Source: a virus
Lineage: Duplodnaviria > Heunggongvirae > Uroviricota > Caudoviricetes
Virus record (IMG/VR): IMGVR_UViG_2728369130_000006
Location: 43,200-107,199 of that record
Length of the DNA: 64,000 bases
Direction: 5' to 3' (one strand)
Positions 781 to 59,206 of the stretch are shown in pieces; position 1 is the stretch's first letter; every line of letters starts with the position of its first letter. The notes below the pieces were generated by a model. That model was not told the DNA's origin, made no database searches, and worked only from the letters and a program-made list of their open reading frames with translations. The translations under genes were made by a program, and so were the position numbers.

Positions 781-809
781 TTGACAAAACTAATTAATAA
801 TGATATAAT
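781..809 (+). promoter_or_regulatory. sigma-A-like promoter TTGACA-N17-TATAAT with the conserved spacer AAACTAATTAATAATGA
   Basis: ttgacaaaactaattaataatgatataat read directly from the sequence. Lies upstream of the 853 gene. Confidence 0.6.
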
Positions 810-852
810 AAAAATATAGAAAAGAAGATAACATATATAGGGGGAATTATTA

Positions 853-1272
853 ATGAAAAACAAAAAGATGAAGAGTGTTGTATTAGCTGTCGGATTAGCT
901 GGAGCTTTGGTAGGAGGAACTGTAACATATGCCGCAACGAATTGGTTTGAACAATTAAAGAGTGAATCTGTAGCAAGTATTCAAGCTCCAAGCGTAGATT
1001 ATAAAAAGGCATTTCAATCAGACTTAGATAAATTAAAAAGTGCTTTAAAAGATGAGGCATCAGATTTAGTAGAAGAAAATAATCAAAATCTAAAGTATGA
1101 TCTCAATGAGTACAAAAAGACAAAAACAAAAGATATGGAAAAGAAAGTTATTGGCGAAAAACTAAAAGAAATTAGAACAGCTCTAGAAAGCGCCGAAGCA
1201 AAAGCATTAGAGAATGGGAAGGCAAAAATTGATACTGCATATGAGCAAGTATTGCAAGAGAATGGCTTTTAA
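853..1272 (+). CDS. membrane-anchored/secreted coiled-coil protein
   Basis: N-terminal hydrophobic segment MKSVVLAVGLAGALVGG and a good RBS GGGGGAAT. Confidence 0.5.
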   Translation: MKNKKMKSVVLAVGLAGALVGGTVTYAATNWFEQLKSESVASIQAPSVDYKKAFQSDLDKLKSALKDEASDLVEENNQNLKYDLNEYKKTKTKDMEKKVIGEKLKEIRTALESAEAKALENGKAKIDTAYEQVLQENGF

Positions 1273-1286
1273 GAGGAGGGTATATA

Positions 1287-1556
1287 ATGGAATTAGAAAC
1301 AATTATGGGTGTCGAAATATTGAAATGGGAAGAATATGATATCCTTGAAGGAGATACACTTCAATTTTACAATGTTGAATTTCTTTTACCTGAACTAGAA
1401 AGTTATAATACAGGAAATGTTATTGTCGCTTTGAGTCGGCAAGGAGAACTTGCAATTTATGATGATGAAAAATTTGTGAAAGAATTAAACATTGCCTCAT
1501 TAAGATCATTTAGAGAAAAACTCAATGAATATTGGGAGACAAAAACAGAGAAATAA
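1287..1556 (+). CDS. hypothetical protein
   Basis: 89-aa ORF with RBS AGGAGGG. Confidence 0.45.
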   Translation: MELETIMGVEILKWEEYDILEGDTLQFYNVEFLLPELESYNTGNVIVALSRQGELAIYDDEKFVKELNIASLRSFREKLNEYWETKTEK

Positions 1557-1580
1557 GACAGCTTATGCTGTCTTATTTTC
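1554..1580 (+). terminator. rho-independent terminator hairpin
   Basis: taagacagc-ttat-gctgtctta followed by tttt. Confidence 0.5.
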
Positions 1581-1602
1581 ATATAGAAGGGATGTAGGCT
1601 AT

Positions 1603-2571
1603 TTGCAGAAACGACTAATTGAATTACTTAACATTTATGCTCCATCAGGTGCAGAATCCGCAGTACGATCCTATTTAAAGCCTATATTGAAGAAATTAAT
1701 GACAGACGTTTTCGAAGATTCTTATGGAAATCTTTTAGCATCAAAAAAATTTGGAACGGGTAAGGGAGCCACGATAATGCTCTCAGCTCATATGGATACC
1801 GTATACGGGATAAAAAGAGAGAAGAGGGTGGTTAATAAGGGTGGGATTATTACCGCAGAGTTGCCTGATGGTTCTCGTACGATTCTAGGTGCGGATGATA
1901 GAGCAGGAATAGCAATTATCCTTTCAGTTATTGAGAAAATTCCAGAACATTTTAACGGTACGATTAAAGTCGCATTCAGCAGAGAAGAAGAAATAGGTCT
2001 TGTCGGAGCAGAAAAGATAAACAAGTCATTTTATAAGGATGTTGATTTGGCGATTGTTGTAGATCGTCAAGGGAGTAGAGATATTGTTGTAGGATCAGAA
2101 TATCCTTTCTGCTGTAATGAGGTTGGCGATTTTGTTGAAAGAATTTCAAAAGAGATCGGTTTAGATTATTCATGTGTAAAAGGAAGGTCATCTGATGCGT
2201 GCATTTTCGCTAAGAATGGAGTCAATACAATAAATTTGAGCGCAGGATACCAGAATGAGCATACAGAATTGGAATTTTTGTCGATATATAATATGAAGGA
2301 TACAATTAAATTAATCTTAATGATTCTTTCTTCAATTAACGATAGTTATCAAGATTTTGTTAATGTGCCGCGTGAGAGCAAATGGATAGCTTATAGTGAG
2401 TATGAAAAAGAATTTATTTGGGAAGAAGAGGAGGATGATTGTGGCTTAGTGTGTGCTTATATGGTCGATGGGAAAATTACAATAAAACAAGGAGAAGATG
2501 AGATTATTATGTCACCAGATAATTTTTTTAATTTATCCAGAAAAATTGTTAAAACATTTGGAAAAACATAG
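1603..2571 (+). CDS. M42/M20-like metallopeptidase
   Basis: Motifs SAHMDTV, GADDRAG, REEEIGLVGA and NEHTE match the co-catalytic metal ligand pattern of M42/M20 peptidases. Start assigned to the in-frame TTG at 1603, after the terminator and after GAAGGGA. Confidence 0.45.
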   Translation: MQKRLIELLNIYAPSGAESAVRSYLKPILKKLMTDVFEDSYGNLLASKKFGTGKGATIMLSAHMDTVYGIKREKRVVNKGGIITAELPDGSRTILGADDRAGIAIILSVIEKIPEHFNGTIKVAFSREEEIGLVGAEKINKSFYKDVDLAIVVDRQGSRDIVVGSEYPFCCNEVGDFVERISKEIGLDYSCVKGRSSDACIFAKNGVNTINLSAGYQNEHTELEFLSIYNMKDTIKLILMILSSINDSYQDFVNVPRESKWIAYSEYEKEFIWEEEEDDCGLVCAYMVDGKITIKQGEDEIIMSPDNFFNLSRKIVKTFGKT

Positions 2572-2605
2572 TATAATAGTCTCACAACGCATAAGGAGGA
2601 AATTC

Positions 2606-3261: not shown

Positions 3262-3290
3262 TTGACAAAGTCCAATTATAATGTTATAAT
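3262..3290 (+). promoter_or_regulatory. sigma-A-like promoter (TTGACA-17-TATAAT) with a conserved upstream TTTTTGAAATCC element
   Basis: Read directly from the sequence. About 30 nt upstream are shared with the promoter at 5775. Confidence 0.5.
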
Positions 3291-3311: not shown

Positions 3312-3342
3312 CACAAAACGAAAATAACATTGAAAAGGATTG

Positions 3343-4623
3343 ATGAGAATGAAAACAACTAGCCCCTCATGGAGCATTAAAGACTTATTCAGGATGGCAG
3401 AAAGTGGAGAGTTGAATTTTAACTATCCAATTCAAAGACCAAGTGGTCAATGGGATGAACTACAAAAATCGTTATATATTCATACAGCGGCATCTGGATG
3501 GGCGATGCCACCTATCTTAGTTTTTAAGGCAGATAAATATGAATATGTATTAGACGGTAAACAGCGTAGCACTAACCTTATAAATTTCGTTAGAGGTGTA
3601 AGAGACCCTGAAACAGGAGTATATCCTGACAAGGCATACCCCTTACATGTAGAAACTCCAGACCTTTTTATACAAGGAATGAAAGGTAAGATTGAAAAGG
3701 TTAAGATAGCAGGTAAATATTTTGATGAATTGCCTCAAGATATACAAGCTGAAATCATGACCACTAATATTCCAGTCCAAAGAATTGAAGATGCTACTGA
3801 CGAAGAGATTGAGGAGCTATTCTTTAGATGGAATAATGGTACACCATTGACAAAACAGCAAAAATCACGTGCGAAAATGGGAACAAAAAATGCAATTATG
3901 ATCGAAGAATTGTTGAAACATCCATTTATGAAGGAGGTTGCACAGTTTACTCCATTGCAACGTAGAAGAAGTGATGATGAAGCAGTTATTCTACAGGCAA
4001 TCATGCTGATGAAGGATAAAGATCAAATTGAAAGCTTTGTCGCGGATAAAATTTTGAATTTCGCCACGGATATGAGAAATACTGATTTAACATCAATCGT
4101 GAAAGAGTTTAAAGATATTCTTAATTATGCTTATTCTGCAAACATCTCAAGCCCATTGTTCAAAAAGCTTCAATTGCCAACGGTCTTCATGGTAGCAAAA
4201 AAAGCTAAGGATAAAAAATTATCTCCTGAAATCTTTGGTAAATGGGTTGAAGATTTCAACTTCGCACTTGGTAAAAGGTCGAAAGAAAAGGCTCTTGTTA
4301 AAGTCGAAGACGACTATAAAGAGAAGTATCAAGGAGCGGGTAGTGTAAAACGGAATAAAATACTTGGTCGCTTGAATGCAATGATGGCGCATTTTGATGA
4401 GTTTGTTGCCTTGCAAGAGAAATTAGAAGAAAAACCAAAAGAAGAGCCGAAAAAAGAACAAAAGAAAGAAGAAAACGTTAAAAAAGATCAGAAGTCTAAA
4501 GATAAAGAAGTAAAAGCTAAGACGGAGAAAAAAGAGGAAGAGCCAAAGAAAGAGAAGAAAGATAAAAGCGGTGATTTGAAAGATATTGTCGCAGAACCAA
4601 AACATGTGACAACAAAATCTTAA
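3343..4623 (+). CDS. DUF262 (ParB/Srx-like nuclease/NTPase domain) protein with a Lys/Glu-rich C-terminal tail
   Basis: N-terminal DGKQRST motif and surrounding pattern typical of DUF262 (GmrSD N-domain). No DUF1524/HNH partner. Tail KEEPKKEQKKEENVKKDQKSKDKE. Confidence 0.5.
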   Translation: MRMKTTSPSWSIKDLFRMAESGELNFNYPIQRPSGQWDELQKSLYIHTAASGWAMPPILVFKADKYEYVLDGKQRSTNLINFVRGVRDPETGVYPDKAYPLHVETPDLFIQGMKGKIEKVKIAGKYFDELPQDIQAEIMTTNIPVQRIEDATDEEIEELFFRWNNGTPLTKQQKSRAKMGTKNAIMIEELLKHPFMKEVAQFTPLQRRRSDDEAVILQAIMLMKDKDQIESFVADKILNFATDMRNTDLTSIVKEFKDILNYAYSANISSPLFKKLQLPTVFMVAKKAKDKKLSPEIFGKWVEDFNFALGKRSKEKALVKVEDDYKEKYQGAGSVKRNKILGRLNAMMAHFDEFVALQEKLEEKPKEEPKKEQKKEENVKKDQKSKDKEVKAKTEKKEEEPKKEKKDKSGDLKDIVAEPKHVTTKS

Positions 4624-5774: not shown

Positions 5775-5803
5775 TTGACAAAGGATTGTATTGATGGTAT
5801 AAT
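5775..5803 (+). promoter_or_regulatory. sigma-A-like promoter (TTGACA-17-TG-n-TATAAT), second copy of the TTTTTGAAATC upstream class
   Basis: Read directly from the sequence. Confidence 0.5.
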
Positions 5804-5878
5804 TTAAATATAAACAATTGAAAGCTGTAACCGATAAGAGTAATAGAATAATGGTTGTATAGGGCTGGAGTGAATATT

Positions 5879-6076
5879 TTGAGCGAAATTAAAGATAGAA
5901 GACGATATCTTATTTTTGAACTTTTAAAGTTTAGAGCTTATTTCAGCAAAGAAGATATACCTTGGTTGGAAAGCCGATCTCTTGCCAAATTAGAAATACT
6001 TCATATTAGAATGAAGTGCTCAAAAGGAAGAAAGATAGAAGTTGAAAGTCGAGATATAAGGAATTTTAATAAATAA
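5879..6076 (+). CDS. hypothetical protein (start uncertain)
   Basis: ORF downstream of the promoter. TTG at 5879 lies after GGAGTG. Confidence 0.3.
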   Translation: MSEIKDRRRYLIFELLKFRAYFSKEDIPWLESRSLAKLEILHIRMKCSKGRKIEVESRDIRNFNK

Positions 6077-6091: not shown

Positions 6092-6120
6092 TTTACGAAA
6101 CTAATTAATAATGCTATAAT
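6092..6120 (+). promoter_or_regulatory. promoter with the conserved AAACTAATTAATAATG spacer (degenerate -35, TATAAT -10)
   Basis: Read directly from the sequence. Confidence 0.45.
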
Positions 6121-6151: not shown

Positions 6152-6352
6152 ATGAGTGTAGATATTAAAAAAATCGAATCTGTAAGCTTTGTTAAATTAA
6201 ATCAGGAAGTTATGAAAATTATCCGTGAACATGCAAAAGAGGGTTCTGAACTTGAAAAAGATTTATACGCTTTAACTAATCTTATCGATAATGAAAGAAA
6301 GAAAAATGAAAAGATTAAAGAACTTGCCTACTTTTTGTCAAATGCATTATAA
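6152..6352 (+). CDS. hypothetical protein
   Basis: RBS AAAGGAG. Confidence 0.45.
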   Translation: MSVDIKKIESVSFVKLNQEVMKIIREHAKEGSELEKDLYALTNLIDNERKKNEKIKELAYFLSNAL

Positions 6353-8443: not shown

Positions 8444-8713
8444 ATGCCTATAAAAGCAGAAGAAGTTGTTGTATCATTAAACAGTCTAATGGAATCTAGA
8501 GGGAGTATCGTCAGGTTTAAAACAGACCGAGGGAGAGCATACCTTCCTTCGATCGAGATTGTGATATATGATGATTATATTGACAGCTTTATTATCAATA
8601 TGGACGATAAGTTCTACAATGAATTGGCAAATCATTTAAAAGCCAAATTTAAAATCTTTAACATTAGTTTCAACAATACACGCTCATGCTTCTGGCATCA
8701 AGATATTGTCTAA
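8444..8713 (+). CDS. hypothetical protein
   Basis: RBS AAAGGAGG before the ATG at 8444. Confidence 0.4.
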   Translation: MPIKAEEVVVSLNSLMESRGSIVRFKTDRGRAYLPSIEIVIYDDYIDSFIINMDDKFYNELANHLKAKFKIFNISFNNTRSCFWHQDIV

Positions 8714-8743
8714 AAAGTTTAAATAAACACGAGGTGGAAGAAA

Positions 8744-9618
8744 TGCTTGAAGATAATTATATATTAGGATTACTGTATGGAGATGGTTATTTTCAGCAGA
8801 AAAATAGATATGAATGGTTTTTGTTTTCTACTACACATAAAGAATTGTCTGATAAAGTTATAAGTTATTTAGATAAAAACAATATTAAATACTTTAATCA
8901 TAGAAGACATTTTCCTAAAGGACATAAAAAAGAAAATTATGAAATTCTTGAATTAATTGAGATTACTGATGAAAAATTCAGAGAGTATCTATTATGTCAA
9001 GGCTTCAATTCAGACAATGCAAGTGAAAGAATTAAATGGAACAGGGATTTTATTAGGGGAATAATTGAGACGAAAGGTTCTCTATTCACTTACCAACATA
9101 GGAACAGTATTGCTTGGCGCATATCTATTAGTGGTAATGAAGATGATGTTAAATATATCAAGCATATGTTGGAAACAGAATTGAATGTTTCAGTAGGCGA
9201 TGTATCCAGAAGAAGAGATAGAGAAAGCAAAGGAATCATTAGTGAATCATACAGACTCAATATTCAGAATAGAGCAGGTGTAAGAGAAGTAGTCAACTTT
9301 ATCAAGGGAGAAAATATATCTAAGTATCTAAATGAAATGATTGAGAAATTTGAGAAATTTGATTTGGAAACTCCATACAACATGAAAAGAAAAGTATTTA
9401 AACATTATAAATTCGCAGTTGGAGCGATGGCTAGAGATTTAGGCATTGTTATCAAAGGAAAGCGTGGAGGGGGAAGAAATTTCAAACCTATATACCTATG
9501 GGAAGGTGATACAGAAATAGCTTGTTTCTCTGGATGGGAAAATGCTTATAAGTGGACGTGTAAAATGTACGAAGAAGAGTTGTGTCGCATTCCGCCAGAA
9601 GTACACAGTGAAGATTGA
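8744..9618 (+). CDS. LAGLIDADG-family homing endonuclease (two-motif, free-standing)
   Basis: LGLLYGDGYF and FIRGIIETKGSL are LAGLIDADG motifs 1 and 2. RBS GAGGTGG before the ATG at 8744. Confidence 0.55.
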
Positions 9619-10898: not shown

Positions 10899-10927
10899 TT
10901 GACAAAAGATAATAAAATTGATATAAT
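10899..10927 (+). promoter_or_regulatory. sigma-A-like promoter TTGACA-17-TATAAT
   Basis: Read directly from the sequence. Confidence 0.45.
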
Positions 10928-11071: not shown

Positions 11072-11464
11072 ATGAGAAATGTCTTTAAATTCAAAGTTGG
11101 TGATCAAATAAGAATTAAAAAAGAATTAATTCTTGGTGAAGCATATTCAATGCAAAATTCGGACATAACGAGTATACTCACAAAAGAAATGAGTAAGCAC
11201 CTTGGAGAAAGGGCTACAATTATGGCCGTTTCTGAAAAGGGTTATACTTTAGACATTTCTCCAAGGTGCTATTTCGTTGACGAAATGTTAAAGCGCGTAA
11301 TTGATCTAAAAGCGAAGTCATTATATACACCAATTAGAGAGGTAGAAGAATTTCACGAACATATGCTTCGCTTGGTTAAGAAACAGCAGATTGATCAAGT
11401 GCTTGACACAAAAAACAAAAAATTATTTAGCCAATTATTAAACAATAAAAATTATCCGAAATAA
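11072..11464 (+). CDS. hypothetical protein
   Basis: RBS AAGGAAGAG. Confidence 0.45.
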   Translation: MRNVFKFKVGDQIRIKKELILGEAYSMQNSDITSILTKEMSKHLGERATIMAVSEKGYTLDISPRCYFVDEMLKRVIDLKAKSLYTPIREVEEFHEHMLRLVKKQQIDQVLDTKNKKLFSQLLNNKNYPK

Positions 11465-11481: not shown

Positions 11482-11511
11482 TTGATTAAAACTCATTAAT
11501 AATGATATAAT
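11482..11511 (+). promoter_or_regulatory. promoter with a variant conserved spacer (AAACTCATTAATAATGA, TATAAT)
   Basis: Read directly from the sequence. No protein gene lies directly downstream. Confidence 0.4.
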
Positions 11512-11736: not shown

Positions 11737-11765
11737 TTGACTATATATACATTAAATGATAAAAT
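11737..11765 (+). promoter_or_regulatory. promoter TTGACT-17-TAAAAT
   Basis: Read directly from the sequence. Lies upstream of the 11833 gene. Confidence 0.4.
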
Positions 11766-13843: not shown

Positions 13844-13847
13844 AGTA

Positions 13848-46920: not shown

Positions 46921-46936
46921 AAACTAATTAATAATG
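46921..46936 (+). promoter_or_regulatory. conserved element without a -10 hexamer, 20 nt before the nrdH start
   Basis: acaaaactaattaataatgacaaaggag followed by the TTG at 46956. Confidence 0.4.
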
Positions 46937-47189: not shown

Positions 47190-47578
47190 TGTTGTTAGTT
47201 TTTGTTTCACTAACAGGCAATGTTAGAAACTTTGTTGGCAGGGTTGGAATGGATAGTCTTGAATTAGATTATTCCAACCCTTTAACAGAGGTTGATGAAG
47301 ATTATATTGTGGTAACTCCCTCATATGATGATGATTTGACAGATGTTATAAGTGAATTTATCGAATACAAAGATAACTTAAAACACTTGGTTGGGTTTGT
47401 TGGCAGTGGAAATAGGAATTTTGATGATGAGTATTGTTTTAATGCTAGAGACCTTTCAAATAAATACAATAAACCATTGATATTCAAGTTTGAATTTAGT
47501 GGTACAGAAAAAGATATAACTGATTTTAAAAAGGAAGTGCATAAATTTGGAGTCACCGAAATTAACAAAGAAAGTTAA
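47189..47578 (+). CDS. nrdI: NrdI flavodoxin-like protein
   Basis: [15 protein letters not shown]-terminal motif, 129 aa, synteny with nrdE. Confidence 0.55.
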
Positions 47579-48704
47579 AGATGATAGTTATTTTACTTTG
47601 AATAACTTATTAAACATCCCTAAAGATGGAAAGATTCAACTTGAGAAAGATAGAGAGGCCGCAAGAGCATACTTTCTAGAGCATGTAAATCCAAATACAG
47701 TGTTTTTTCATACCCTTGATGAAAAGCTTGATTACTTAGTTGAAAATAAATACATAAAAGATGACATTTTGAACAAGTATAGCAGAAAGTTTATTAAACG
47801 GTTATTTAAAAAATTGTATAATCACAAATTTAGATTCCGTAGCTTTATGGGAGCTTATAAATTTTATCAGCAATATGCAATGAAAACCAATGATAAAGAA
47901 AGATTCTTAGAAAGATTTGAAGACAGAATTGCTTTCACTGCATTAGCAATAGCTAACGGTGATGAACATTTTGCAATGGACTTGGCAGATGAAATGATTA
48001 ATCAGCGATATCAACCTGCAACACCTACATTTTTAAACATTGGTAAAGAGAGAGCGGGAGAAATGGTTTCTTGCTTCTTGCTAACTTTGTCAGATGATAT
48101 GAACAGTATTGGTCGGTCAATTAATTCAGCTTTACAACTGTCTAAACGAGGTGGAGGAGTTGGAATAAATCTATCCAACATCAGGGCAAATAATGATCCG
48201 ATTAAAGGGATTTATGGATTGGCCGATGGAGTAGTTCCTATCATGAAACTATTTGAAGATGCTTTTTCTTATGCAAATCAAGGTGGGGCAAGAGATGGAG
48301 CTGGTGTAGTCTATCTCAATATCTTCCATCCAGATGTTGTAGATTTCTTAGCAGTTCGGAAAGAAAATGCCGATGAGAAAGTTCGAATTAAAACGCTATC
48401 GCTCGGCTTGGTTGTTCCAGACAAATATTATGAACTTATCAAAAAAAATGAATATATGTATCTCTTTTCTCCACATGATGTAGAAAAAGCTTATGGCGTT
48501 CCATTCTCTTATGTTGATATCACGAAAGAGTATGAGAACATGGTCAACAACCCTGAAATTAGAAAAACTAAAATCAAGGCGCGTGAGCTTGAAACAGAGA
48601 TTAGCAACTTACAGAATGAGAGTGGATACCCATACATAATCAATATTGATACGGCTAATAATGCGAATCCTATTAACGGAAAGATTATTATGTCTAACTT
48701 GTGT
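47547..48704 (+). CDS. nrdE: ribonucleotide reductase class Ib large subunit NrdE, exon 1 (ends ...IIMSNLC)
   Basis: N-terminus matches NrdE ([21 protein letters not shown]). The frame hits TAA immediately after the conserved SNLC. The remainder of the protein resumes at 49769. Confidence 0.65.
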
Positions 48705-49768
48705 TAAACGTAGCACCTTCATACAGCAATGTATGTCGAAAACCTTGTTAAAACGGTGGAAGTCTTACTGAGATAATACCGTAGGAAGCATTAATCACAA
48801 TCAGCAGATGCCTTTAATAATTAGAGATTATTGGAGGAATCAATATAGAAGATAAATATTTTGGATTTATTTATGAGACTACCAATCTAATCAATTGAAT
48901 TAAATACATTGGAAAATGCATATTTAAGCGTCAAAATAATTGGAAGACTTATTTAGGCTCTGGAACGTATTTGAAAAGAGCAATAAAAAAATATGGAAAA
49001 GAAAATTTTAAGCGAGAAATATTATTTTTAGCATTGGATAATGAAGAGTTAAATGAATTAGAAGAATTTATCATAAAGATAAGTGATGCAGTTGAGTCTT
49101 CAAACTATTATAATTTAAAAATCACTTCTATTGGTGGAGATGTTTTTACCTACAACCCACGAAAAGAAGAAATAAGAGAGATACGAAGACAGCAATTTTC
49201 AGGAGAGGGTAATTATTGGTATGGAAGAGAAAAGCCCTCTTACATCATTCAATCTATTAAAGAGGCAAATTCAAAAAAGATAATTGCTGACGGAGTTTTA
49301 TATGACAGTATTACTGAGTGTGCAAAATTAACTGGATTAAAGATATCGACAATACATGCACGGTTAAACAGTGATACGAATGATAAATTTTTCTATGCAG
49401 ATAAGTATGGCAATACAATTCCTAAAAGACTAAGAAACAAAAAAATCAATTCAAGTAAAAGCCTGTAAAAATAAAAATTGAAGGGAAAATATTCAATTCT
49501 AAAAAAGAAGCTCGAAAAGAATTGCATATTGGTCAGGCAACTCTTGAAAAAATGATTAGTGAAGGTAGATGCAAAATTGTGGATTAATGAACCTCTAACG
49601 ACTATCGAAACCACGCAAAAGCGGAAGGGAGTAGAGTACACCACAAGCGATTGGTGGTGGAAAAGCAAGGAATCCTACAGGGATTATGATATAGTCTGCT
49701 CTGCATGGCGACATGTAGCTGTGGTTTGCCCACGCCTTAGACGTAGCGAATCTAGGGGAACATATAGG
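48705..49768 (+). other. group I intron in nrdE (about 1064 nt) carrying a degenerate homing-endonuclease ORF
   Basis: Exon 1 ends on U after SNLC. The downstream frame restores the conserved ...TEIFQ... (NLCxEI). The 3' roughly 200 nt (49560-49768) are GC-richer, look structured and end in G. Confidence 0.55.
48845..49468 (+). pseudogene. decayed GIY-YIG homing endonuclease gene (I-TevI-like) inside the intron
   Basis: KYFGFIYETTNLIN then a frameshift into IKYIGK...GSGTYLKRAIKKYG (GIY-YIG motifs). The ORF has no ATG. The C-terminal HTH repeat GVLYDSITECAKLTGLKISTIHARL is followed, after a stop, by a second repeat KIFNSKKEARKELHIGQATLEKMIS. Confidence 0.5.
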
Positions 49769-50797
49769 ACAGAAATCTTTCAAATTATGAAAGATTCAAT
49801 CATTAGAGACGATCAAACATATGAGATTCTAGGAAGTGACATTAGTTGCAATTTAGGATCAACCAATGTTGTAAAGCTCATGGAGTCACCGAACTTTGGG
49901 AAATCGGTTAGGACAATGCTACGTGCACTAACTTACGTTACTGATAATTCAAATATCGATTCTGTACCAACAGTGAAAAATGGGAATGACAGATATCATT
50001 CTGTTGGTCTTGGAGCTATGAATCTTCATGGTTATCTAGCAAAAAATCATATTGAATATGGCTCTCCAGAAGCTTTAGAGTTTACAGACATTTATTTTAT
50101 GCTATTAAACTTTTGGACTCTTGCTGAAAGTAATGATATTGCTCGAGAAAGAGGAGAGACATTTTTTGAATTTGAAAAATCAAAATATGCAGATGGAACT
50201 TATTTTGATATGTATTTAAATGCTCCTGATTTCGAATTTAAGCATGAAAAAGTTAAAAAACTATTTGAGGGAATCTTTATTCCTAAGCATCAAGATTGGA
50301 AAAGACTTAAAGAAAATATCATGAGATATGGACTTTATAATGCATATAGATTGGCAACTGCACCAACAGGCTCTATTTCATACATTAATGAAGCAACGGC
50401 CTCAATTCACCCGATTACTCAGCGAATTGAGGAGAGAACCGAAGGCAAGCGAGGTAAAGTATATTATCCAGTTCCATATCTTTCTGATGACACGATTCCT
50501 TATTATAAAACGGCCTATGATATTGATCAACGCAAGATTATTAATACATATGCAATAGCGCAAAAACATGTTGATCAAGGCATGAGCATGACTCTGTTCT
50601 TTAGAGAAGAGCTTCCAGAAGGTATGTATGAATGGAAGGCTGATAGCGAATACCCTACTAAAAAGACCACTCGTGATTTAAGCATTCTTAGAAACTATGC
50701 ATGGAAAAAAGGTATTAAATCAGTCTATTACATTAGAACATTCACTGATGATGGAGATATGATCGGAGCTAATGAATGTGAAAGTTGCTCAATTTAA
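49769..50797 (+). CDS. nrdE: NrdE exon 2 (C-terminal half, ending ...CESCSI)
   Basis: Conserved RNR large-subunit C-terminal region and redox-active C-terminal cysteines. Confidence 0.6.
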   Translation, partial: TEIFQIMKDSIIRDDQTYEILGSDISCNLGSTNVVKLMESPNFGKSVRTMLRALTYVTDNSNIDSVPTVKNGNDRYHSVGLGAMNLHGYLAKNHIEYGSPEALEFTDIYFMLLNFWTLAESNDIARERGETFFEFEKSKYADGTYFDMYLNAPDFEFKHEKVKKLFEGIFIPKHQDWKRLKENIMRYGLYNAYRLATAPTGSISYINEATASIHPITQRIEERTEGKRGKVYYPVPYLSDDTIPYYKTAYDIDQRKIINTYAIAQKHVDQGMSMTLFFREELPEGMYEWKADSEYPTKKTTRDLSILRNYAWKKGIKSVYYIRTFTDDGDMIGANECESCSI

Positions 50798-50815: not shown

Positions 50816-51784
50816 ATGAATAATGAAAAGGTGATAAATATCCTTAAGCCAATTAACTGGAACGCTGTTGAGGATATGTTAGATAAGAAAACTTATGAAC
50901 AACTTGCTAGTCAATTCTGGTTAGCGAATCGTATGCCTGTTGGAAAAGATAAGAAAGATTGGAGTTTGCTTTCTGAAATTGAACAAAAGCTAGTTGGCAA
51001 AGTATTTGGAGGATTAACTGGACTAGATACTTTACAATCAGAAGACGGAATTGATGCAATCAAAAAAGATGCAATCACTCAACATGAAAGAGCGGTTTAT
51101 AACAATATAGCATTTATGGAATCTGAGCATGCAAAAAGTTACTCTTCTATTTTTAGCACTTTGAATACTCCAAAAGAAATTCGTGAGATTTTTGAGTGGG
51201 CGGAAAACAATGAGTACCTACAAAAGAAAGCTTCCATTATCAGAGAGGTATATCATAATGGAAGTCCTTTGCAAAAGAAAGTTGCAAGTGTTTTTCTAGA
51301 ATCATTCTTATTTTACTCAGGATTTTACACACCTCTTTATTATATGGGGAGAGGAAAATTAATCAATGTAGCTGAGGTAATCAAGCTAATCATTCGTGAT
51401 GAATCAGCTCATGGAGCTTACATTGGATACAAGTTTAAAGTAGGATTCAATAAATTGCCTGATCAAGAAAAAGAAGAATTAAAATCTTGGGCATATAATT
51501 TACTATATACCCTTTACGAAAATGAATGTAAATACACAGAATACCTATATGACAAAATTGGATGGACTGAAGATGTCAAAGTATTTCTCAGATATAATGC
51601 GAACAAAGCTTTGATGAATTTAGGATTGTCTCCATTATTCCCTGACACTGCGGATGATGTAAATCCAATAGTCATTAATGGTCTTTCAACTACTACAACA
51701 AATCATGATTTCTTTAGTGCGGTCGGGAATGGATACCTGATGTCAGTTGTAGAAGATATGAGAGACTCTGATTACGATTATTAA
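50816..51784 (+). CDS. nrdF: ribonucleotide reductase small subunit NrdF (R2)
   Basis: Ferritin-like diiron motifs (ESEHAKSY, RDESAHGAY) and the C-terminal ...DYDY. Confidence 0.65.
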   Translation: MNNEKVINILKPINWNAVEDMLDKKTYEQLASQFWLANRMPVGKDKKDWSLLSEIEQKLVGKVFGGLTGLDTLQSEDGIDAIKKDAITQHERAVYNNIAFMESEHAKSYSSIFSTLNTPKEIREIFEWAENNEYLQKKASIIREVYHNGSPLQKKVASVFLESFLFYSGFYTPLYYMGRGKLINVAEVIKLIIRDESAHGAYIGYKFKVGFNKLPDQEKEELKSWAYNLLYTLYENECKYTEYLYDKIGWTEDVKVFLRYNANKALMNLGLSPLFPDTADDVNPIVINGLSTTTTNHDFFSAVGNGYLMSVVEDMRDSDYDY

Positions 51785-51805
51785 ACTAATTAATAATGAT
51801 AAAAT
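51777..51805 (+). promoter_or_regulatory. promoter-like copy of the conserved element (weak -35, -10 TAAAAT)
   Basis: Read directly from the sequence. Confidence 0.35.
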
Positions 51806-51826
51806 ACATTAATGAGGAGAATGAAC

Positions 51827-52570
51827 ATGGAAAAAGGGAAAAGACGCTATTACAAAGTAGGAGAAATTGTTTGGGTTATCAAAGAAAAGACAGAGGCGAA
51901 AGTCCTCTCTATCGATCCAAACTCTCTTGAGGTAAAAGTTGAAATTAAACTCGATAAGAGCGCAAAAAAAGAAAAAACATTAAAAATGTGGGAAATCGAC
52001 AAGCTGAAATATGAAGCAAAAGAAAGATTTCTAAAATCAAGAAAACAAAAAAATAAAAAGGTTACATACTTCGCATCAGTTAATGGAGGGGTAATCCCTA
52101 CAAAAGATAAAGAAAATGGTGGTAGGGATTGCTATGCAAGATTAGAACCAATTGTTCGTGAGGGGAAAGAGATTTACGAATTACATATTCCGAAATTAAC
52201 ATTAGCTAAAATCCCTTTGGGATTTGCCTCCTACCTAAATCTTGGAGATGTTTTATCCCTAAAACACGAACGCTCATCGATTGGATCAATTGGGATGGCA
52301 AATTTAAGTGGACTGATCGATGCGACATATCAAGGTGAAGTTATTTTGCAAGTAGTTCCATTGATCGCCGATGTAATCATCTCAAGTGAAGTGGACGAAC
52401 TTTTCCATGATAAAAAAACAGATACATATTTTGTACCGTATTCTAAAGCAATTGCTCAAGCTGTTGTCTTAAAGCAGTCGGATGCAGAAGATGAACATAT
52501 TTCATATGAAGAGTTGATTAAGAAACCTAGTACACGTGGAACTGGTGGTTGGGGTTCTACAGGAAAATAA
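51827..52570 (+). CDS. dut: dUTPase with an N-terminal extension
   Basis: RSSIGSIGMANLSGLIDATYQGEV matches dUTPase motif 3 (RSG...G.IDSDYRGEV). RBS GAGGAGAATG. Confidence 0.5.
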   Translation: MEKGKRRYYKVGEIVWVIKEKTEAKVLSIDPNSLEVKVEIKLDKSAKKEKTLKMWEIDKLKYEAKERFLKSRKQKNKKVTYFASVNGGVIPTKDKENGGRDCYARLEPIVREGKEIYELHIPKLTLAKIPLGFASYLNLGDVLSLKHERSSIGSIGMANLSGLIDATYQGEVILQVVPLIADVIISSEVDELFHDKKTDTYFVPYSKAIAQAVVLKQSDAEDEHISYEELIKKPSTRGTGGWGSTGK

Positions 52571-52975: not shown

Positions 52976-53004
52976 TTGACTAAACTAATTAATAATGTTA
53001 TAAT
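52976..53004 (+). promoter_or_regulatory. promoter TTGACT-AAACTAATTAATAATGT-TATAAT
   Basis: Read directly from the sequence. Confidence 0.55.
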
Positions 53005-53043: not shown

Positions 53044-53595
53044 ATGGCACTATTTATAATTACAGCTCCAAGTGGAGCTGGGAAGACAACGATTATGAAT
53101 GAAATTAAAAATTACACTGAAATGATCGGAGAATGTATTTCTACAACAACTAGACCTATAAGAAAAGGTGAGGTGGATGGTGAGTCGTACTATTTCCTTA
53201 CAAAAAAAGAGTTTACTTCTGCAATAAATGATGGTGAATTTGCTGAACATGTTGTCTATGGAGGTCATTACTATGGGATAACCAAGTATCAAATTGAAAC
53301 TGTTTTGAAGAAATATAACCATGCATATATAATCGCTGATTATCATGGATATGAACAATTAAAAGAAGTATATCCAGATGCAGTTGGAATCTTCCTACAC
53401 ATGAGCAAAGAGGATTGTCTAGCGAACATGCTCCTAAGAGGAGACGCCATTGAACAGTCCTTATCACGAATTGAAACTTATGAAAATGAAATGAAGAATA
53501 GAGATAAGTTTGACTATGTGGTTAAAAATGTTCGAGGGAAAGGTATGAGATTTACAGTGCAAATTATTTTAAACATTATTAATCAATACTCTTAG
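53044..53595 (+). CDS. gmk: guanylate kinase-like nucleoside monophosphate kinase
   Basis: ITAPSGAGKTT, ISTTTRPIRKGEVDGESYYF, ....GEFAEHVVYGGHYYG match the guanylate kinase signature. Confidence 0.55.
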   Translation: MALFIITAPSGAGKTTIMNEIKNYTEMIGECISTTTRPIRKGEVDGESYYFLTKKEFTSAINDGEFAEHVVYGGHYYGITKYQIETVLKKYNHAYIIADYHGYEQLKEVYPDAVGIFLHMSKEDCLANMLLRGDAIEQSLSRIETYENEMKNRDKFDYVVKNVRGKGMRFTVQIILNIINQYS

Positions 53596-55132: not shown

Positions 55133-55946
55133 CAAAATTGAGGTGTTTGACTCTCCAAGAAGAGATGATGGCGAAATTGATTGGGGATTAAAAGCGATCA
55201 ATGCTCCTAACGTGTGGAGCAAAACAAAAGGAGAAGGTGTCCGTATACTTCTTATGGATACGGGAGTAGACACAGATCATCCTGAATTATCCCATGCATT
55301 TAAATCTGGTTATAACTTTTTTGAAAGAAGCCATAACGTTGAAGATGAGAAAGGGCATGGAAGTCATGTTGCTGGATTATTGGTAGGGAAAAATACTGGA
55401 GTTGCACCAGAAGCAGAACTGCATGTTATCAAAGTTTTAAACGATAACGGCAAGGGAAATATGGCAAGCGTAATGGATGGAATTACTTATGCAATTAACT
55501 ATGGCTTTGATGTCTTATGTATGTCTTTAGGGGTTGATAGAGAACTTCCCAATATTTTTAAAGAGAGGATCGAGAGAGCTTATAATGAAGGGATTGTCAT
55601 GGTTTGTGCAACTGGCAATGATGGGAACAACGAATCATTGTATCCTGCACGCTTGGACGAAGTGATAGCTGTTGGTGGTGTTGATAAAGATAAAAAAATT
55701 ACTCCATTTACTAATAGAGGATTCGATGTTCTTGCACCTTCAACTGAAATTCTAAGCTCTTATAAAGATGGGAAATATGCAAAAATGACTGGAACTTCAA
55801 TGGCGTCACCATTAGTTGCGGGAGCAATTGCATTATTAATCTCCCACTATAAAAATAACGGAAAGCAAATAGATATTAGAGAGATTAAGAAAAAGATGGA
55901 GAGTTTAAACAATAAGATTCTTGATTTAAATGAATTTATTACTTGA
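55107..55946 (+). CDS. subtilisin-like (S8) serine protease, no signal peptide
   Basis: Catalytic triad motifs LLMDTGVDTDH (D), HGSHVAGL (H), GTSMASPLVAG (S). TTG start after AAGGAG. Overlaps the upstream ORF by 26 nt. Confidence 0.55.
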   Translation: MKGKEIDLDKIEVFDSPRRDDGEIDWGLKAINAPNVWSKTKGEGVRILLMDTGVDTDHPELSHAFKSGYNFFERSHNVEDEKGHGSHVAGLLVGKNTGVAPEAELHVIKVLNDNGKGNMASVMDGITYAINYGFDVLCMSLGVDRELPNIFKERIERAYNEGIVMVCATGNDGNNESLYPARLDEVIAVGGVDKDKKITPFTNRGFDVLAPSTEILSSYKDGKYAKMTGTSMASPLVAGAIALLISHYKNNGKQIDIREIKKKMESLNNKILDLNEFIT

Positions 55947-57118
55947 TAAGTGAGCTGATAAGATTGGAATCATTAAAAGAAATCTTATATTCAAAGTTGC
56001 CAACAATGAAAAGTGAAGAATATAAAAAATACTTAGAAGAATCGGAGAACGGGTATATCAACATCAAGAGTCATCCAGAAGATGAGAACATAAAAATATT
56101 GTGTTATACAAAACTTACTGTATATGAGAAACGATGGAATCATGAGACTATGACCGCCAGAGGTTTAATTATTGACACAACAGAACTAAGTAATAATGGA
56201 TTAATATACATATTAGCAAAACCGTTTGATAAGTTCTTTAATTATGGTGAGAATCCAGAATATGAAAAAGACATTAACTTTTCAAAAATTGAATCTGTTA
56301 TGGAAAAAATCGATGGTTCATTAGGGATTTCCTACTTCTTTAACAATGAAATTCGATTTGCTACAAAAGGCAGTTTTACATCAGATCAGGCAATTAAAGC
56401 TACCGAAATGTGGAAAGAAAAATATTCACAAAATGAAGATATTGGTCACTATTGTCGAACGCCAGTAACTTATCTTGTCGAAATTATCTACCCAGAAAAT
56501 AGAGTGGTTGTTGATTATAAAGATAGTGAACACTTAGTGTTGCTTGGTGTTATATATCTCTTCGGCTCTATTCATGATGCTAATCGTGAAAATGTCGATT
56601 GGGAAGCTTACAGATTAAATATGTCTCTTGCTAAGCAATATAAATACAAATTTGAAGAGCTGATTCAAATGAAAGATATGCTGTCAGCTAATGAAGAAGG
56701 TTGGGTGATTAGATTTTCAAATGGTAAACGTTTGAAAATTAAAGGCAATGAATACTTACAGGTGCATAGATTAATGCATGGTCTGTCTACTAAGGCTAAA
56801 TATAAAGCTTGGGCAGAAAATAGAATTGATGAATACATATTGTCATTACCAGAAGAGTTCAGGCCAGAGATTGAGGGCTTTAAAAATAAGATCGATAGAA
56901 TTTTCGAAGCTCAATCAAAACTAATCCGAATGACCTTTAATCAAATTGCAAAAACCGACAAGAAAAAAGAGTTTGCTCTATTTGTAACAGAAAATATTCC
57001 ACCAGAGTTGCAAAAATATATGTTCGCAATGTATAACACAGGAAGATTCCCAGAACGAATGCTTAAAGAAGATATTTATAAAAACTATGGTGAATACGAA
57101 AAAGAGGAGATGTGCTAA
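55943..57118 (+). CDS. Rnl1-family ATP-dependent RNA ligase (T4 RnlA-like)
   Basis: Nucleotidyltransferase motif I EKIDGSL (KxDGSL). The upstream FDKFFNYGENP region resembles T4 Rnl1. TTG start overlaps the protease stop. Confidence 0.5.
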   Translation: MISELIRLESLKEILYSKLPTMKSEEYKKYLEESENGYINIKSHPEDENIKILCYTKLTVYEKRWNHETMTARGLIIDTTELSNNGLIYILAKPFDKFFNYGENPEYEKDINFSKIESVMEKIDGSLGISYFFNNEIRFATKGSFTSDQAIKATEMWKEKYSQNEDIGHYCRTPVTYLVEIIYPENRVVVDYKDSEHLVLLGVIYLFGSIHDANRENVDWEAYRLNMSLAKQYKYKFEELIQMKDMLSANEEGWVIRFSNGKRLKIKGNEYLQVHRLMHGLSTKAKYKAWAENRIDEYILSLPEEFRPEIEGFKNKIDRIFEAQSKLIRMTFNQIAKTDKKKEFALFVTENIPPELQKYMFAMYNTGRFPERMLKEDIYKNYGEYEKEEMC

Positions 57119-58140
57119 TGGAACAATTGAGATTTCTAATGCTAATTGGTTTGCCTGCAAGTGGAAAGTCCACATTTGCAAAAGAACTAATTGAAGGAGA
57201 AAACGGTGCTCAAAGAGATGACATTAAATATCTTTCATCAGATAAGATTCGAGAAGAATTATATGGGGATGAGAGTGTTCAGACTGACCCTTCAAAAGTT
57301 TTTGAACTAATGAGGACAAGAACATTAGACGCATTAAAAGAAGGTAAACACGTCATTTATGATGCTACTAATATTGGCCGAAAAAAGCGTAAAGGATTGC
57401 TTCAACAGCTTCCAAAAGGGGTGCATAAAACGGCAGTATACATGGCGACAGGCTATGGGACATGCATAGATATGAACACTCATCGTGAGAGAACTGTGCC
57501 AAAAATCGCAATAGACAATATGTATAAAAGTCTACAAATCCCTATTTATTCAGAAGGCTGGGACAATATTGTCTTCAACTATCCAGAAGGGCTAATTGAA
57601 GATGCGCTCCCTAAGCAATTTGTTGACGCGGTGAGAGCGGGAGTCTTGTTAAATAGAGAAGGATATAATCTTATGGATTTTCTTGCTTCATACTTTAGAG
57701 AGTTCTTTGCGATTCACGACTTTCCACAGGATTCGAAATATCATAGCTTTTCGACAAGTAGGCATACATATTACGTTTACAAACATGTTTTAGACAACTA
57801 TAAGACAGAAGATGAAACTGAGAAAGAATTGATGCTTTGGACTGCTCTTCTCCATGATATTGGGAAGCCATTCTGCAAGAGCTTTGCCAACAGAAAAGGT
57901 GAAGAGGTGAGATATGCCAACTTTATTGGACATGAATACGTTGGTTCACAATTAGCCGTACACCTTCTTAAACAAATGGGTTTTGACGATGGTTTTATAC
58001 ATACTGTTGTAACATTGATTCAATTTCATATGTATCTCTTAAATCAAGACGCTAATAAAGAAAAGCTTAAGAGATATGTGGGAGAGGATTTATTTAAGAA
58101 GTTAGAATTTCTAAGGGAAGCAGATACATTAGCACATTAA
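57118..58140 (+). CDS. polynucleotide kinase (P-loop) fused to an HD-domain phosphohydrolase (RNA end-healing enzyme)
   Basis: LIGLPASGKSTFAKEL (Walker A) plus the C-terminal H...HDIGKP...H...H HD signature. Adjacent to the RNA ligase. Confidence 0.5.
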   Translation: MEQLRFLMLIGLPASGKSTFAKELIEGENGAQRDDIKYLSSDKIREELYGDESVQTDPSKVFELMRTRTLDALKEGKHVIYDATNIGRKKRKGLLQQLPKGVHKTAVYMATGYGTCIDMNTHRERTVPKIAIDNMYKSLQIPIYSEGWDNIVFNYPEGLIEDALPKQFVDAVRAGVLLNREGYNLMDFLASYFREFFAIHDFPQDSKYHSFSTSRHTYYVYKHVLDNYKTEDETEKELMLWTALLHDIGKPFCKSFANRKGEEVRYANFIGHEYVGSQLAVHLLKQMGFDDGFIHTVVTLIQFHMYLLNQDANKEKLKRYVGEDLFKKLEFLREADTLAH

Positions 58141-58154
58141 AGAGGAGTGGAGTT

Positions 58155-58406
58155 ATGTTTTTAAAGTTTTTTAAGAAAAAAGAAGAAAAGAAGCCTGAGT
58201 TGAAAGTTTTTTCTTATACAATTTATAAAACTGATGGTTCTTCTATTGATGCTTTAGAATACATAGAAAGTGAGAGTAAGCTTTCAAATTTCTTAGTCAA
58301 TTCATTAGAATACAACAACACACTATGGGTTGTAGATCAGGACGATAAAAGATTCATTCTTAAAACAAAGGATATAAAAGAGATTGTAATTAATGGAGAG
58401 ATTTGA
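58155..58406 (+). CDS. hypothetical small protein
   Basis: RBS AGAGGAGTGGAG. Confidence 0.35.
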   Translation: MFLKFFKKKEEKKPELKVFSYTIYKTDGSSIDALEYIESESKLSNFLVNSLEYNNTLWVVDQDDKRFILKTKDIKEIVINGEI

Positions 58407-58409
58407 CTA

Positions 58410-58604
58410 TTGAATCTTAAATTTGAATTGAAAGACGGACGAATTTTCCTTATCGTAGAAATCAACATTTGGGATGGGGTTGTTGAGAGAAGAGATGTTA
58501 CAGATGATCTATATCCAATTATAGGGGAATATCTTAACCAGCCATATGCTCACGATTATCAAGAATTGGCCGAAATAAGAAAAACATTGAGAGGGGAAAT
58601 CTAA
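58410..58604 (+). CDS. hypothetical small protein
   Basis: TTG start. Confidence 0.3.
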   Translation: MNLKFELKDGRIFLIVEINIWDGVVERRDVTDDLYPIIGEYLNQPYAHDYQELAEIRKTLRGEI

Positions 58605-58605
58605 T

Positions 58606-59175
58606 ATGTCAGAAAAAGAAAAAAATAATACTCAAAATATTAGCGGCAAAAAACGAGACCTAATTCTCGGAGGAACGGTCAATGAAGAAAGCATCCATAA
58701 ATTAGTAGAGAAAATTATTGAAATCAATAGGTATGACGAGGATAAATTAGAAAAAGATAGTTCATATACGCCAAAACCAATCAAAATTTATGTTAATACA
58801 TATGGTGGTGTGCTGTACGATGCTAACATGCTAATTGGTGTAATCGAAAGCAGTAAAACTCCTATTCATACATACTGTAGTGGAAAAGCTATGAGCGCTG
58901 GGTTGTATATTTATGTATCAGGGCATAAGCGTTTCGCATCTAAGCTGGCTACTTTTATGTATCATGATGCTTCCACTGGTCAAAAAGACACTGTTGAAGG
59001 ATTAAAACGTGAAATTGATCATGTTGAAAAGCTTCGTGACAGATATGATCAATATATCATTAGCCGAACTAAGCTTCCTAAAGAACTAATGGATAAAACA
59101 AAGCGACACAAAGAAGAGCTTTACCTATTTGCAGATGAAGCGTTGGAATATGGAATTGTAGACGAAATTATTTAA
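58606..59175 (+). CDS. ClpP-like (S14) serine protease
   Basis: IYVNTYGGVLYDANMLIGVIESSKTPIHTYCSGKAMSAGLYIYVSG parallels ClpP I.SPGG.V.AG.AIYD......V.T.C.G.AASM. Catalytic Ser in GKAMSAG. Confidence 0.5.
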   Translation: MSEKEKNNTQNISGKKRDLILGGTVNEESIHKLVEKIIEINRYDEDKLEKDSSYTPKPIKIYVNTYGGVLYDANMLIGVIESSKTPIHTYCSGKAMSAGLYIYVSGHKRFASKLATFMYHDASTGQKDTVEGLKREIDHVEKLRDRYDQYIISRTKLPKELMDKTKRHKEELYLFADEALEYGIVDEII

Positions 59176-59177
59176 CT

Positions 59178-59206
59178 AATATAAAACTAATTAATAATGA
59201 ATAATG
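59178..59206 (+). promoter_or_regulatory. promoter-like copy of the conserved element (weak hexamers)
   Basis: Read directly from the sequence. Confidence 0.35.

Follow-up and report, generated by a model that had tools for sequence, protein, structure and literature searches.

Introduction

Why should the spacer of a promoter be kept constant while its hexamers vary? The question is raised by a stretch of 64,000 nucleotides from a tailed virus (Caudoviricetes; IMG/VR record IMGVR_UViG_2728369130_000006, positions 43,200 to 107,199; hereafter the window), in which the 19-mer ACAAAACTAATTAATAATG (hereafter the box) recurs, mostly within promoters of host type. An earlier note on this DNA had described an element reiterated about 17 times, usually as promoter spacer, and had proposed that it is a recognition site for a DNA-binding factor or marks promoters of a phage-modified RNA polymerase. 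We propose, with moderate confidence and by sequence comparison and analogy with phage SPbeta of Bacillus subtilis, that the box is the operator of an MrpR-like repressor encoded at 11863-12900 of the window, which would silence lytic promoters in the lysogen.

Census and anatomy of the box

With up to three mismatches allowed, the box matches the window 20 times, eight times exactly and always on the plus strand; dinucleotide-preserving shuffles gave a mean of 0.15 matches and a maximum of 1. Every gene in the window lies on the plus strand and 90.5% of the sequence is coding, yet 18 of the 20 copies are intergenic, against an intergenic share of 9.5% (binomial P = 6e-17). The element is thus far from equally frequent inside coding regions, a point on which the earlier note had made its proposal depend. 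The reiteration holds as first described, and the positions given at the time, though off by 1-5 nt, designate the same sites; only the copies at 11866 and 56180, both coding and with two mismatches, had been missed.

Between 12 and 14 of the intergenic copies occupy the 17-nt spacers of sigma-A-type extended -10 promoters with TG at -15/-14. The register is fixed, with the -35 hexamer at -3 to +2 and the -10 hexamer at +20 to +25 relative to the start of the site. The first three bases of the box (ACA) are the end of the -35 hexamer, its final TG is the extended -10 dinucleotide, and the remainder plus one base makes up the spacer. TAT is conserved around the expected transcription start of the aligned sites, similarity between sites stops at ~29 bp, and besides the hexamers the box is the sole sequence that these promoters have in common. 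In a separate scan for hexamers, the box promoters and three box-less promoters were the top plus-strand sites; seven box promoters match the hexamers at 11-12 of 12 positions and carry the TG, and the -35 hexamer is perfect or near-perfect at many copies. The suggestion that these are something other than generic sigma-A promoters does not survive this result, as most copies sit in good sigma-A-type extended -10 promoters in which the site is embedded. What does hold is that the spacer is fixed while the hexamers vary (TTGACA, TTTACA, TTTACT and CTGATA; TATAAT, TAAAAT and GAAAAT), a contrast that is partly due to ascertainment, since the sites were found via the spacer. The supposed related class of sites is not a separate one: its member at 17601 is the 17595 copy with one T>C change, and that at 3272 is the diverged spacer of the perfect promoter at 3262-3290.

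Several other readings of the repeat were tried and rejected. A -10 element inside the box (AATAAT or TAATAA) with a -35 farther upstream was ruled out by the lack of conservation upstream, and a reading of the AAC...CGT kind used by extracytoplasmic function sigma factors by the absence of CGT. The Pfam scan of window open reading frames (ORFs) of at least 100 aa also revealed no phage RNA polymerase, as a promoter of the T7-like single-subunit type with its start at the final G would require. A spacer operator of the MerR type was ruled out because the box is asymmetric, with no dyad symmetry on inspection, and the spacer has the optimal length of 17 nt. Leaderless mRNAs from the copies that lack hexamers are implausible, the expected starts falling 4-7 nt before GTG or TTG start codons.

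Copies without hexamers and selection on the box

Four copies, at 13847, 27211, 46918 and 59181, keep the box perfectly or with one mismatch where the hexamer positions are unrecognisable; we refer to them as orphans. Taken together they are mismatched at 1 of 76 box positions and at 28 of the 36 hexamer positions that lie outside the box (Fisher P = 4e-18). In all four a Shine-Dalgarno sequence starts 3-7 nt past the box and the start codon lies 17-20 nt past it. A transcript starting at the usual distance from an orphan would lose the ribosome-binding site (RBS), so the orphans are not promoters for the downstream gene. Three of them follow a box-bearing promoter, at distances of 66, 93 and 314 nt.

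A close relative of the window is a 159,776-bp IMG/VR contig that is ~96% identical to it. Over 15 orthologous sites, substitutions affect 3 of 285 positions in the box, compared with 61 of 1080 in the flanks (P = 4e-4). In the -10 hexamer they affect 3 of 90, and the difference between box and hexamer substitution rates in this comparison alone is not significant (P = 0.22). The box is under selection independent of promoter function.

One alternative is that the spacer is intrinsic to the promoter, being read by host sigma-A RNA polymerase or uniform through descent or gene conversion, with no dedicated factor involved and the orphans as relics. The exact register would agree with this, the TG at -15/-14 is a known polymerase contact, and the lack of a significant difference between the substitution rates of box and hexamers in the close relative counts in its favour. 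Relics, however, would decay evenly, whereas the orphans keep 75 of 76 box positions against the loss of hexamers just described. Moreover, the absence of similarity past ~29 bp makes recent duplication or long conversion tracts unlikely, and three perfect, TG-extended predicted promoters in the window do without the box sequence. We regard this explanation as unlikely.

One could also place the signal in RNA, as an A/U-rich element of the 5' untranslated region that acts in translation, processing or small-RNA pairing, at least at the RBS-side copies. The closeness of the orphans to the Shine-Dalgarno sequence, and their predicted transcription from the upstream promoter of a tandem pair, would suit such a role. 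In the 12-14 promoter copies, however, the box lies upstream of the expected start. Listed terminators (22937-22960 and 40289-40315) stand directly upstream of two copies, and a hairpin with a T-run, read by eye and not listed by the terminator scan, precedes the 17595 copy; at these sites the box would be missing from the RNA. No copy complementary to the box occurs within the window, Rfam and tRNA scans of it found nothing, and a single DNA-level mechanism would cover both classes of copies, as in SPbeta. An RNA-level role therefore seems very improbable.

An integrase-fold protein as the putative reader of the box

The genes of the window serve replication, nucleotide metabolism and RNA repair (YorF-like, AAA_24, helicase, primase, RecJ, gyrase B/A, NrdEF/I and ligases), and their order matches that in the Bacillus phages Skywalker and vB_BcoS-136 (hereafter phage 136). 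Gene content and order identify the window as the arm for replication and nucleotide metabolism of a giant temperate siphovirus of the Tsamsa-like group, whose members are termed 'tyroviruses' (PMC9703825).

The product of 11863-12900 matches the Pfam families MrpR_N_CB (5.8e-20) and MrpR_C_cat (1.3e-11) and aligns over its full length with YopR/MrpR in the PDB (8bj6/8a0a; E = 4e-18, residues 9-331 to 2-306); no match to Phage_integrase was obtained from Pfam at E <= 0.001. Its identity to MrpR/SroF is 26-27%. When aligned to the catalytic columns of MrpR Table 3, with calls that depend on the alignment at 26% identity, it keeps E, K and R-II, whereas R-I is V/G, H-II is K, H/W-III falls in a gap and the nucleophilic tyrosine is replaced by Phe324. 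The close tyrovirus orthologs (45-52% identity to the window protein) all lack the nucleophilic tyrosine, most having Phe and two Leu or Ile, while three more distant homologs (32-35% identity) retain it. R-I, H-II and H/W-III are absent also from the orthologs of Skywalker, phage 136 and phage FADO, which were aligned in detail. The tyrovirus 'integrase' or 'tyrosine recombinase' at this position is probably a repressor and not a recombinase.

The gene is preceded by a 130-aa ORF and then a 370-nt ORF-poor stretch. No convincing ORF is present in this stretch (11465-11832), which separates the box promoter at 11486 from the mrpR-like gene. Further sites resembling promoters occur there, as does a box-like sequence in reverse orientation (~11720-11738, 4 mismatches), and the stretch may encode a small RNA or serve as a regulatory leader. 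YopP/YopQ-like or AimR-like proteins were not found in the Pfam scan of window ORFs of at least 100 aa, and the idea that the ORF right after the repressor gene encodes a YopS-like helix-turn-helix protein received no support from Pfam.

Parallels in SPbeta and phi3T

MrpR is the master repressor of SPbeta, a protein with the fold of a tyrosine recombinase that retains three of seven catalytic residues and no recombinase activity. Its binding to the 15-bp SPbeta repeated element (SPBRE) in ~10 promoter regions was established by chromatin affinity precipitation sequencing, electrophoretic mobility shift assays, isothermal titration calorimetry and reporters (PMC10516654). In phi3T, a SroF monomer nearly encircles the DNA that it binds, touching 24 of the 26 bp of a box that is asymmetric and AT-rich; boxes of this type occur at multiple sites across the genome, and the small antirepressor Sar, whose gene lies one ORF downstream and is LexA-controlled, releases SroF (bioRxiv 10.1101/2025.11.27.690993).

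The text of PMC10516654 neither prints the SPBRE sequence nor states the positional layout of the boxes. In the SPbeta genome (NC_001884) the 13-mer AAAAAATATGTAT is common to seven published MrpR peak regions, with at most one mismatch each, and is here taken to be the SPBRE core. This box lies in the 17-nt spacer of promoters at yonP (TAGACA-AATACAAATAATATGTA-TATAAT), yorE (TAGACA-AAGATAAAAAATATGTA-TATAAT) and aimR (ATTACA-AATACAAAAAATATGTA-TAAAAT). At yopM and yopV (19892 and 25415 of the stretch examined) it lacks hexamers and runs into GGAGG, and at yonX two boxes (10713 and 10777 of the stretch examined) are 64 nt apart, the second adjoining the RBS. Spacer location, RBS-side orphans and tandem pairs are thus all present in SPbeta, so that the odd features of the window exist in an experimentally validated system.

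The likeness extends to the proteins and the genes concerned. Both phages encode homologous integrase-fold repressors with degenerate catalytic residues, both are large temperate Bacillus phages with a long, asymmetric, AT-rich box at many promoter regions, and in both the box stands upstream of homologous replication genes (yorE/F/G in SPbeta; the YorF-like and AAA_24 genes in the window). The position of a LexA-like box, on the promoter of a gene one ORF downstream of the repressor gene, may be a further parallel. The systems differ in the low identity of the two proteins and in the sequence of the box, which from ACA to the -10 is identical at 12 of 20 positions. Sites are about three times as dense in the window phage (at least 18 in the 64-kb window and ~29 in ~90 kb of the relative, against ~10 in 134 kb of SPbeta), the nucleophile position is Phe in the window protein and Tyr in SPbeta MrpR, and neither the sroA-F layout nor arbitrium genes are seen in the window. 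In addition, the window phage belongs to another group, the Tsamsa-like tyroviruses, and its box binding is predicted from sequence.

Box types among related phages

Skywalker (Bacillus anthracis) and phage 136 (Bacillus cohnii) have promoters of the same form, TTGACA-n5-6-AAAAATAATGR-TATAAT, and their boxes share AAAAATAATG. The nearly invariant spacer of FADO (B. subtilis) is AGTGATACAAATAATGA, giving the box type GTGATACAAATAATG, and the spacer of SPbeta, also from B. subtilis, differs again. A further 41 IMG/VR loci revealed a loose, generic spacer type in most tyrovirus-like phages. The 3' half, AATAATG followed by TATAAT, is common to all tyroviruses examined, with hosts from B. anthracis to B. 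cohnii and B. subtilis, as a promoter-intrinsic element would be; the 5' half, on the other hand, differs within one host (FADO versus SPbeta) and is shared across hosts (Skywalker and phage 136), which argues against such an element.

We also compared the residues of the MrpR-like proteins at the columns aligned to the base-contacting residues of the phi3T protein (233, 234, 237 and 238 in alpha-13; 300 in alpha-18). These are K-H-F-T/T in the window lineage, K-F-Y-R/H in 11 orthologs from phages with generic spacers (45-62% identical overall), K-Q-Y-R/H in the FADO ortholog and K-M-Y-R in a locus with a GTGATAAATAAAAT repeat. Box type follows the phage lineage and not the host, and its covariation with the putative DNA-reading residues of the repressor is suggestive.

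A repressible spacer: proposed mechanism and its alternatives

In the mechanism that we propose, one repressor monomer would wrap each box in the lysogen. The box reaches from the ACA that ends the -35 hexamer to the extended -10 TG, so that a bound repressor would deny the host sigma-A RNA polymerase access, and a prophage of ~160 kb would keep its many near-consensus lytic promoters silent. The hexamers would be free to drift, tuning promoter strength, with the box kept intact so that the promoter stays repressible; the need for every promoter to stay repressible would explain why the spacer is invariant while the hexamers vary. Copies without hexamers before an RBS, in many cases 54-93 nt past a box-bearing promoter, would act as second locks or roadblocks against read-through. 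That the repressor binds the box, and represses by binding, we infer from its likeness to MrpR, and the role of the orphans is suggested by analogy with yopM, yopV and yonX of SPbeta and with the stoperators of mycobacteriophage L5. A more specific version, in which the orphans are orientation-specific roadblocks ('stoperators') of a DNA-encircling, monomeric dead integrase, within a network of ~30-40 sites whose strength is tuned by the hexamers and whose invariant spacer serves silencing, is tentative and in our view rather doubtful; it would make the system denser and more complete than that of SPbeta.

Several observations weigh against the repressor reading. The link between box and repressor rests on distant protein identity together with the parallels in layout, and the covariation of residues and box on few independent lineages and a 27%-identity alignment. 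The exact register at every promoter would fit an element read by polymerase, or common descent, whereas a free operator needs no such precision. Most tyrovirus relatives conserve only the 3' half of the spacer (AAAAATAATG), and that loosely, and RNA polymerase could equally read this part. In phi3T the one box that we located abuts the -35 on its upstream side, outside the spacer, so not every member of the family places its box there. Upstream of the mrpR-like gene there is no sroA-F operon layout as in SPbeta, and the neighbourhood encodes further DNA-binding proteins, the XRE protein at 4729-5091 among them.

This XRE-family helix-turn-helix protein leads to another explanation, namely that a different phage factor reads the box, either another repressor or an activator or sigma-like protein that marks the lytic regulon. 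The hexamers of several box promoters are poor, and these might depend on such a factor. In the close relative, moreover, a tandem pair of a promoter box and an orphan box precedes the gene for a 140-aa protein that weakly resembles phage sigma-factor PHROGs (E ~1e-7; IMGVR_UViG_3300019135_000009, 864-1283 of the stretch examined, minus strand); this protein may be a phage late transcription factor under repressor control. Against a different factor, the asymmetric box lacks the dyad that XRE dimers normally read, the seven box promoters with the best hexamers and TG should need no activator, and the presence of the same box before replication, lysis and tail genes is a misfit for an activator of a temporal class. 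Transcripts from the orphans would, in addition, start inside or after the RBS, and neither MotA/AsiA-like factors nor RNA polymerase genes were found in the Pfam scans of window ORFs of at least 100 aa and of part of the smaller ones. Another reader of the box thus appears improbable. The earlier proposal of a phage-modified RNA polymerase finds no support, with no polymerase or appropriation factor among the scanned window ORFs of at least 100 aa and the box preceding genes of both early and late type. The companion proposal, that the spacer is a site for a phage factor, gains from the near-perfect copies without hexamers, from the slower evolution of the box than of its flanks and from the encoded MrpR/SroF homolog, although these lines are indirect.

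Other known systems share single features with the repressible spacer proposed here. The repressor of phi105, also a temperate Bacillus phage, reads asymmetric, directly repeated 14-bp operators; these are non-palindromic as in the window, but its six sites are clustered at the immunity region and not spread genome-wide, and the protein is of another family. The MotA box of T4 middle promoters, like the box, is a phage-specific sequence at a fixed position inside host-type promoters. It replaces the -35, needs a good -10 and activates by sigma appropriation, whereas the -35 in the window is often perfect and the orphans have no -10. In T4-type early promoters and PeSL cassettes conservation also reaches well beyond the two hexamers, but there conservation is highest in the hexamers themselves, and copies that lack them do not belong to the pattern. 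A parallel to the orphans comes from mycobacteriophage L5, whose monomeric repressor gp71, a helix-turn-helix protein, has many asymmetric sites across the genome in short intergenic gaps, in one orientation to transcription; some overlap a promoter and some do not. Nevertheless, gp71 is unrelated to MrpR and its site is a GC-rich 13 bp; roadblock function is established in L5, while for the window phage we infer it. The L5 repressor and its 'stoperators' were reportedly described by Brown et al. in EMBO J in 1997.

Sites in the window and the predicted regulon

The copies of the box, the promoters that lack it and the two genes of the proposed control region are collected in Table 1.

Table 1. 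Boxes, box-less promoters and putative regulatory genes in the window (window coordinates).
Feature	Position	Strand	Context
Box, exact	784..802	+	Spacer of perfect promoter TTGACA-17-TATAAT (781-809), upstream of gene 853..1272
Perfect promoter, spacer AAGTCCAATTATAATGT (diverged box relative)	3262..3290	+	Upstream of DUF262/GmrSD_N gene 3340..4623
Perfect promoter without box	5775..5803	+	Upstream of gene 5855..6076
Box, 1 mismatch	6095..6113	+	Promoter TTTACG-17-TATAAT, upstream of gene 6152..6352
Perfect promoter without box	10899..10927	+	Upstream of gene 11072..11464
Box variant, 3 mismatches	11486..11504	+	-10 TATAAT, -35 weak; followed by the ORF-poor stretch before the mrpR-like gene
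Box-less promoter-like site TTGACT-17-TAAAAT	11737..11765	+	Upstream of mrpR-like gene
MrpR/YopR/SroF-like integrase-fold protein gene	11863..12900	+	Proposed box reader; public gene calls begin 12 nt earlier (349 aa)
Box-like, 2 mismatches	11866..11884	+	Coding, over first codons of mrpR-like gene; conserved in the 96% relative; possible autoregulatory site, or chance
Box-less promoter TAGACA-17-TATAGT with LexA/Cheo-like box CGAACACATGATCG (13318-13331)	13271..13331	+	
128-aa gene	13387..13773	+	One ORF downstream of mrpR-like gene
Box, 2 mismatches	13781..13799	+	Perfect promoter (13778-13806); first of tandem pair upstream of YorF-like gene
Orphan box, exact	13847..13865	+	Hexamers unusable (AGTACA / ATCAGG); RBS 5 nt on; gene 13883..15028, start codon 17 nt on
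Box, 1 mismatch	15028..15046	+	Promoter CTGATA-17-TAAAAT, upstream of AAA_24 (YorG/Sak4-like) gene 15102..16217
Box, 2 mismatches	17595..17613	+	Promoter TTGACC-17-TATAAT, upstream of gene 17627..18241
Box, exact	20942..20960	+	Promoter TTTACA-17-TATATT
Box, 1 mismatch	21070..21088	+	Weak hexamers TTCATA / TGAAAT; 128 nt past 20942 copy; upstream of RecJ-like gene region
Box, 1 mismatch	22979..22997	+	Promoter TTTACA-17-TATAAT, right after terminator 22937-22960; upstream of HD-domain gene 23035..23745
Box, exact	26897..26915	+	Promoter TTGACA-17-GAAAAT, upstream of gene 26980..27204
Orphan box, exact	27211..27229	+	ATTACA / TAGAGG; into RBS of gene 27250..27486, heading 13-kb small-gene array
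Box, 1 mismatch	40321..40339	+	Promoter TTTACT-17-TATAAT, right after terminator 40289-40315
Box, exact	46825..46843	+	Promoter TTGACA-17-TATTAT; contains gyrA stop codon; first of tandem pair
Orphan box, exact	46918..46936	+	ACAACA / CAAAGG; into RBS of gene 46956..47189
Box, 2 mismatches	51780..51798	+	-35 absent (ATTATT), TG + TAAAAT -10; upstream of gene 51812..52570
Box, 1 mismatch	52979..52997	+	Promoter TTGACT-17-TATAAT, upstream of guanylate kinase gene 53044..53595
Box-like, 2 mismatches	56180..56198	+	Coding, within RNA ligase gene 55943..57118
Orphan box, 1 mismatch	59181..59199	+	AATATA / ATAATG; fills 41-nt gap before DNA ligase gene 59217..60521

An integrated prophage with dozens of near-consensus promoters of host type must have them silenced somehow. 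The genes behind boxes in the window belong to replication, nucleotide metabolism and RNA repair. In the ~90 kb of the close relative that were examined, ~29 boxes occur on both strands, always co-oriented with a downstream ORF on the same strand and also outside the region homologous to the window; the genes behind them include an endolysin, a 1614-aa tail protein, an exonuclease V-like helicase and the sigma-factor-like protein. By contrast, box-less promoters, including weaker sites at 4659, 11737, 13271 and 62247, precede the DUF262/GmrSD_N gene, the XRE regulator, the mrpR-like gene, the gene with the LexA-like box and a large serine recombinase, kinds that are expected to be expressed in the lysogen or controlled separately.

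The LexA-like box CGAACACATGATCG has one mismatch to CGAAC-N4-GTTCG and lies 18 nt past the -10 of the promoter of gene 13387..13773, whose 128-aa product is, by position only, a candidate SOS-controlled antirepressor. It is conserved in the close relative. No comparable box was found in Skywalker or phage 136, and FADO has a LexA-like box with one mismatch farther upstream, ahead of the promoter. The 128-aa product has no sequence similarity to Sar (phi3T_99) or YopT, and an indexed search returned only two homologs.

Two of the sites have further features. Past the perfect promoter at 13778-13806, and before the 13847 orphan, a hairpin is followed by a T-run (13820-13836); unless something intervenes, transcripts from this promoter may end there early. 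The RNA ligase gene of Skywalker has a perfect TTGACA-17-TATAAT promoter at the codon position homologous to 56180-56198 of the window; a promoter inside this gene appears to be conserved across the phage family.

Distribution and significance

The same phage is integrated in several Bacillus assemblies, one of which is a complete 4.3-Mb chromosome; natural lysogens include the strain with chromosome CP154901.1 and Bacillus sp. FSL W8-0445. A scan of GTDB met the promoter only in one Metabacillus metagenome-assembled genome. Scanning viral contigs with a 16-mer gave 115 loci, mostly chance coding matches (K-L-I-N-N), and multiple copies in one phage lineage only. A literature search for the box sequence gave no relevant match, the Tsamsa, tyrovirus (PMC9703825) and Perkons papers contain no promoter or motif analysis, and the literature searched holds no earlier description of this box and repressor for tyroviruses. 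The system would be one more case of the SPBRE/MrpR kind, from another phage group, with a new box sequence and about three times the site density, and is apparently undescribed for tyroviruses.

If the box is indeed the operator of the MrpR-like protein, silencing by an integrase-fold repressor through a repeated box, known from SPbeta and phi3T (2023-2025), would extend to the Tsamsa-like giant siphoviruses of the Bacillus cereus and B. subtilis groups and relatives. A gene now called integrase or tyrosine recombinase would have to be re-annotated in every sequenced member, one of the three 'tyrosine recombinases' behind the name tyrovirus would be the master repressor, and the lytic regulon of these phages could be defined directly from sequence. 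The clean architecture (a 19-bp box, fixed register, variable hexamers, orphans and tandems) would lend itself to the study of a monomeric, encircling repressor against RNA polymerase and of elongation block, and the variants of box and repressor (window, FADO, generic and SPbeta types) would form a ready set for studying the evolution of specificity and immunity groups.

Other features of the window

The gene for the large subunit of ribonucleotide reductase (47547-50797) is split into 47547..48707 and 49559..50797, with an intervening ORF (48971..49468) whose product has an I-TevI-like DNA-binding domain. The arrangement looks like an intron with a homing endonuclease, although no Rfam intron model matched the split gene at threshold. 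Several homing endonucleases are encoded in the window, including a LAGLIDADG (8686..9618) and an HNH (41864..42685) enzyme. Genes for RNA repair and tRNA metabolism (6468-7193, 40479-41201 and 55943-58140) encode a Thg1-like tRNA-His guanylyltransferase, an RlaP nucleotidyltransferase, a T4-type RNA ligase, a kinase/HD phosphatase and PTH2.

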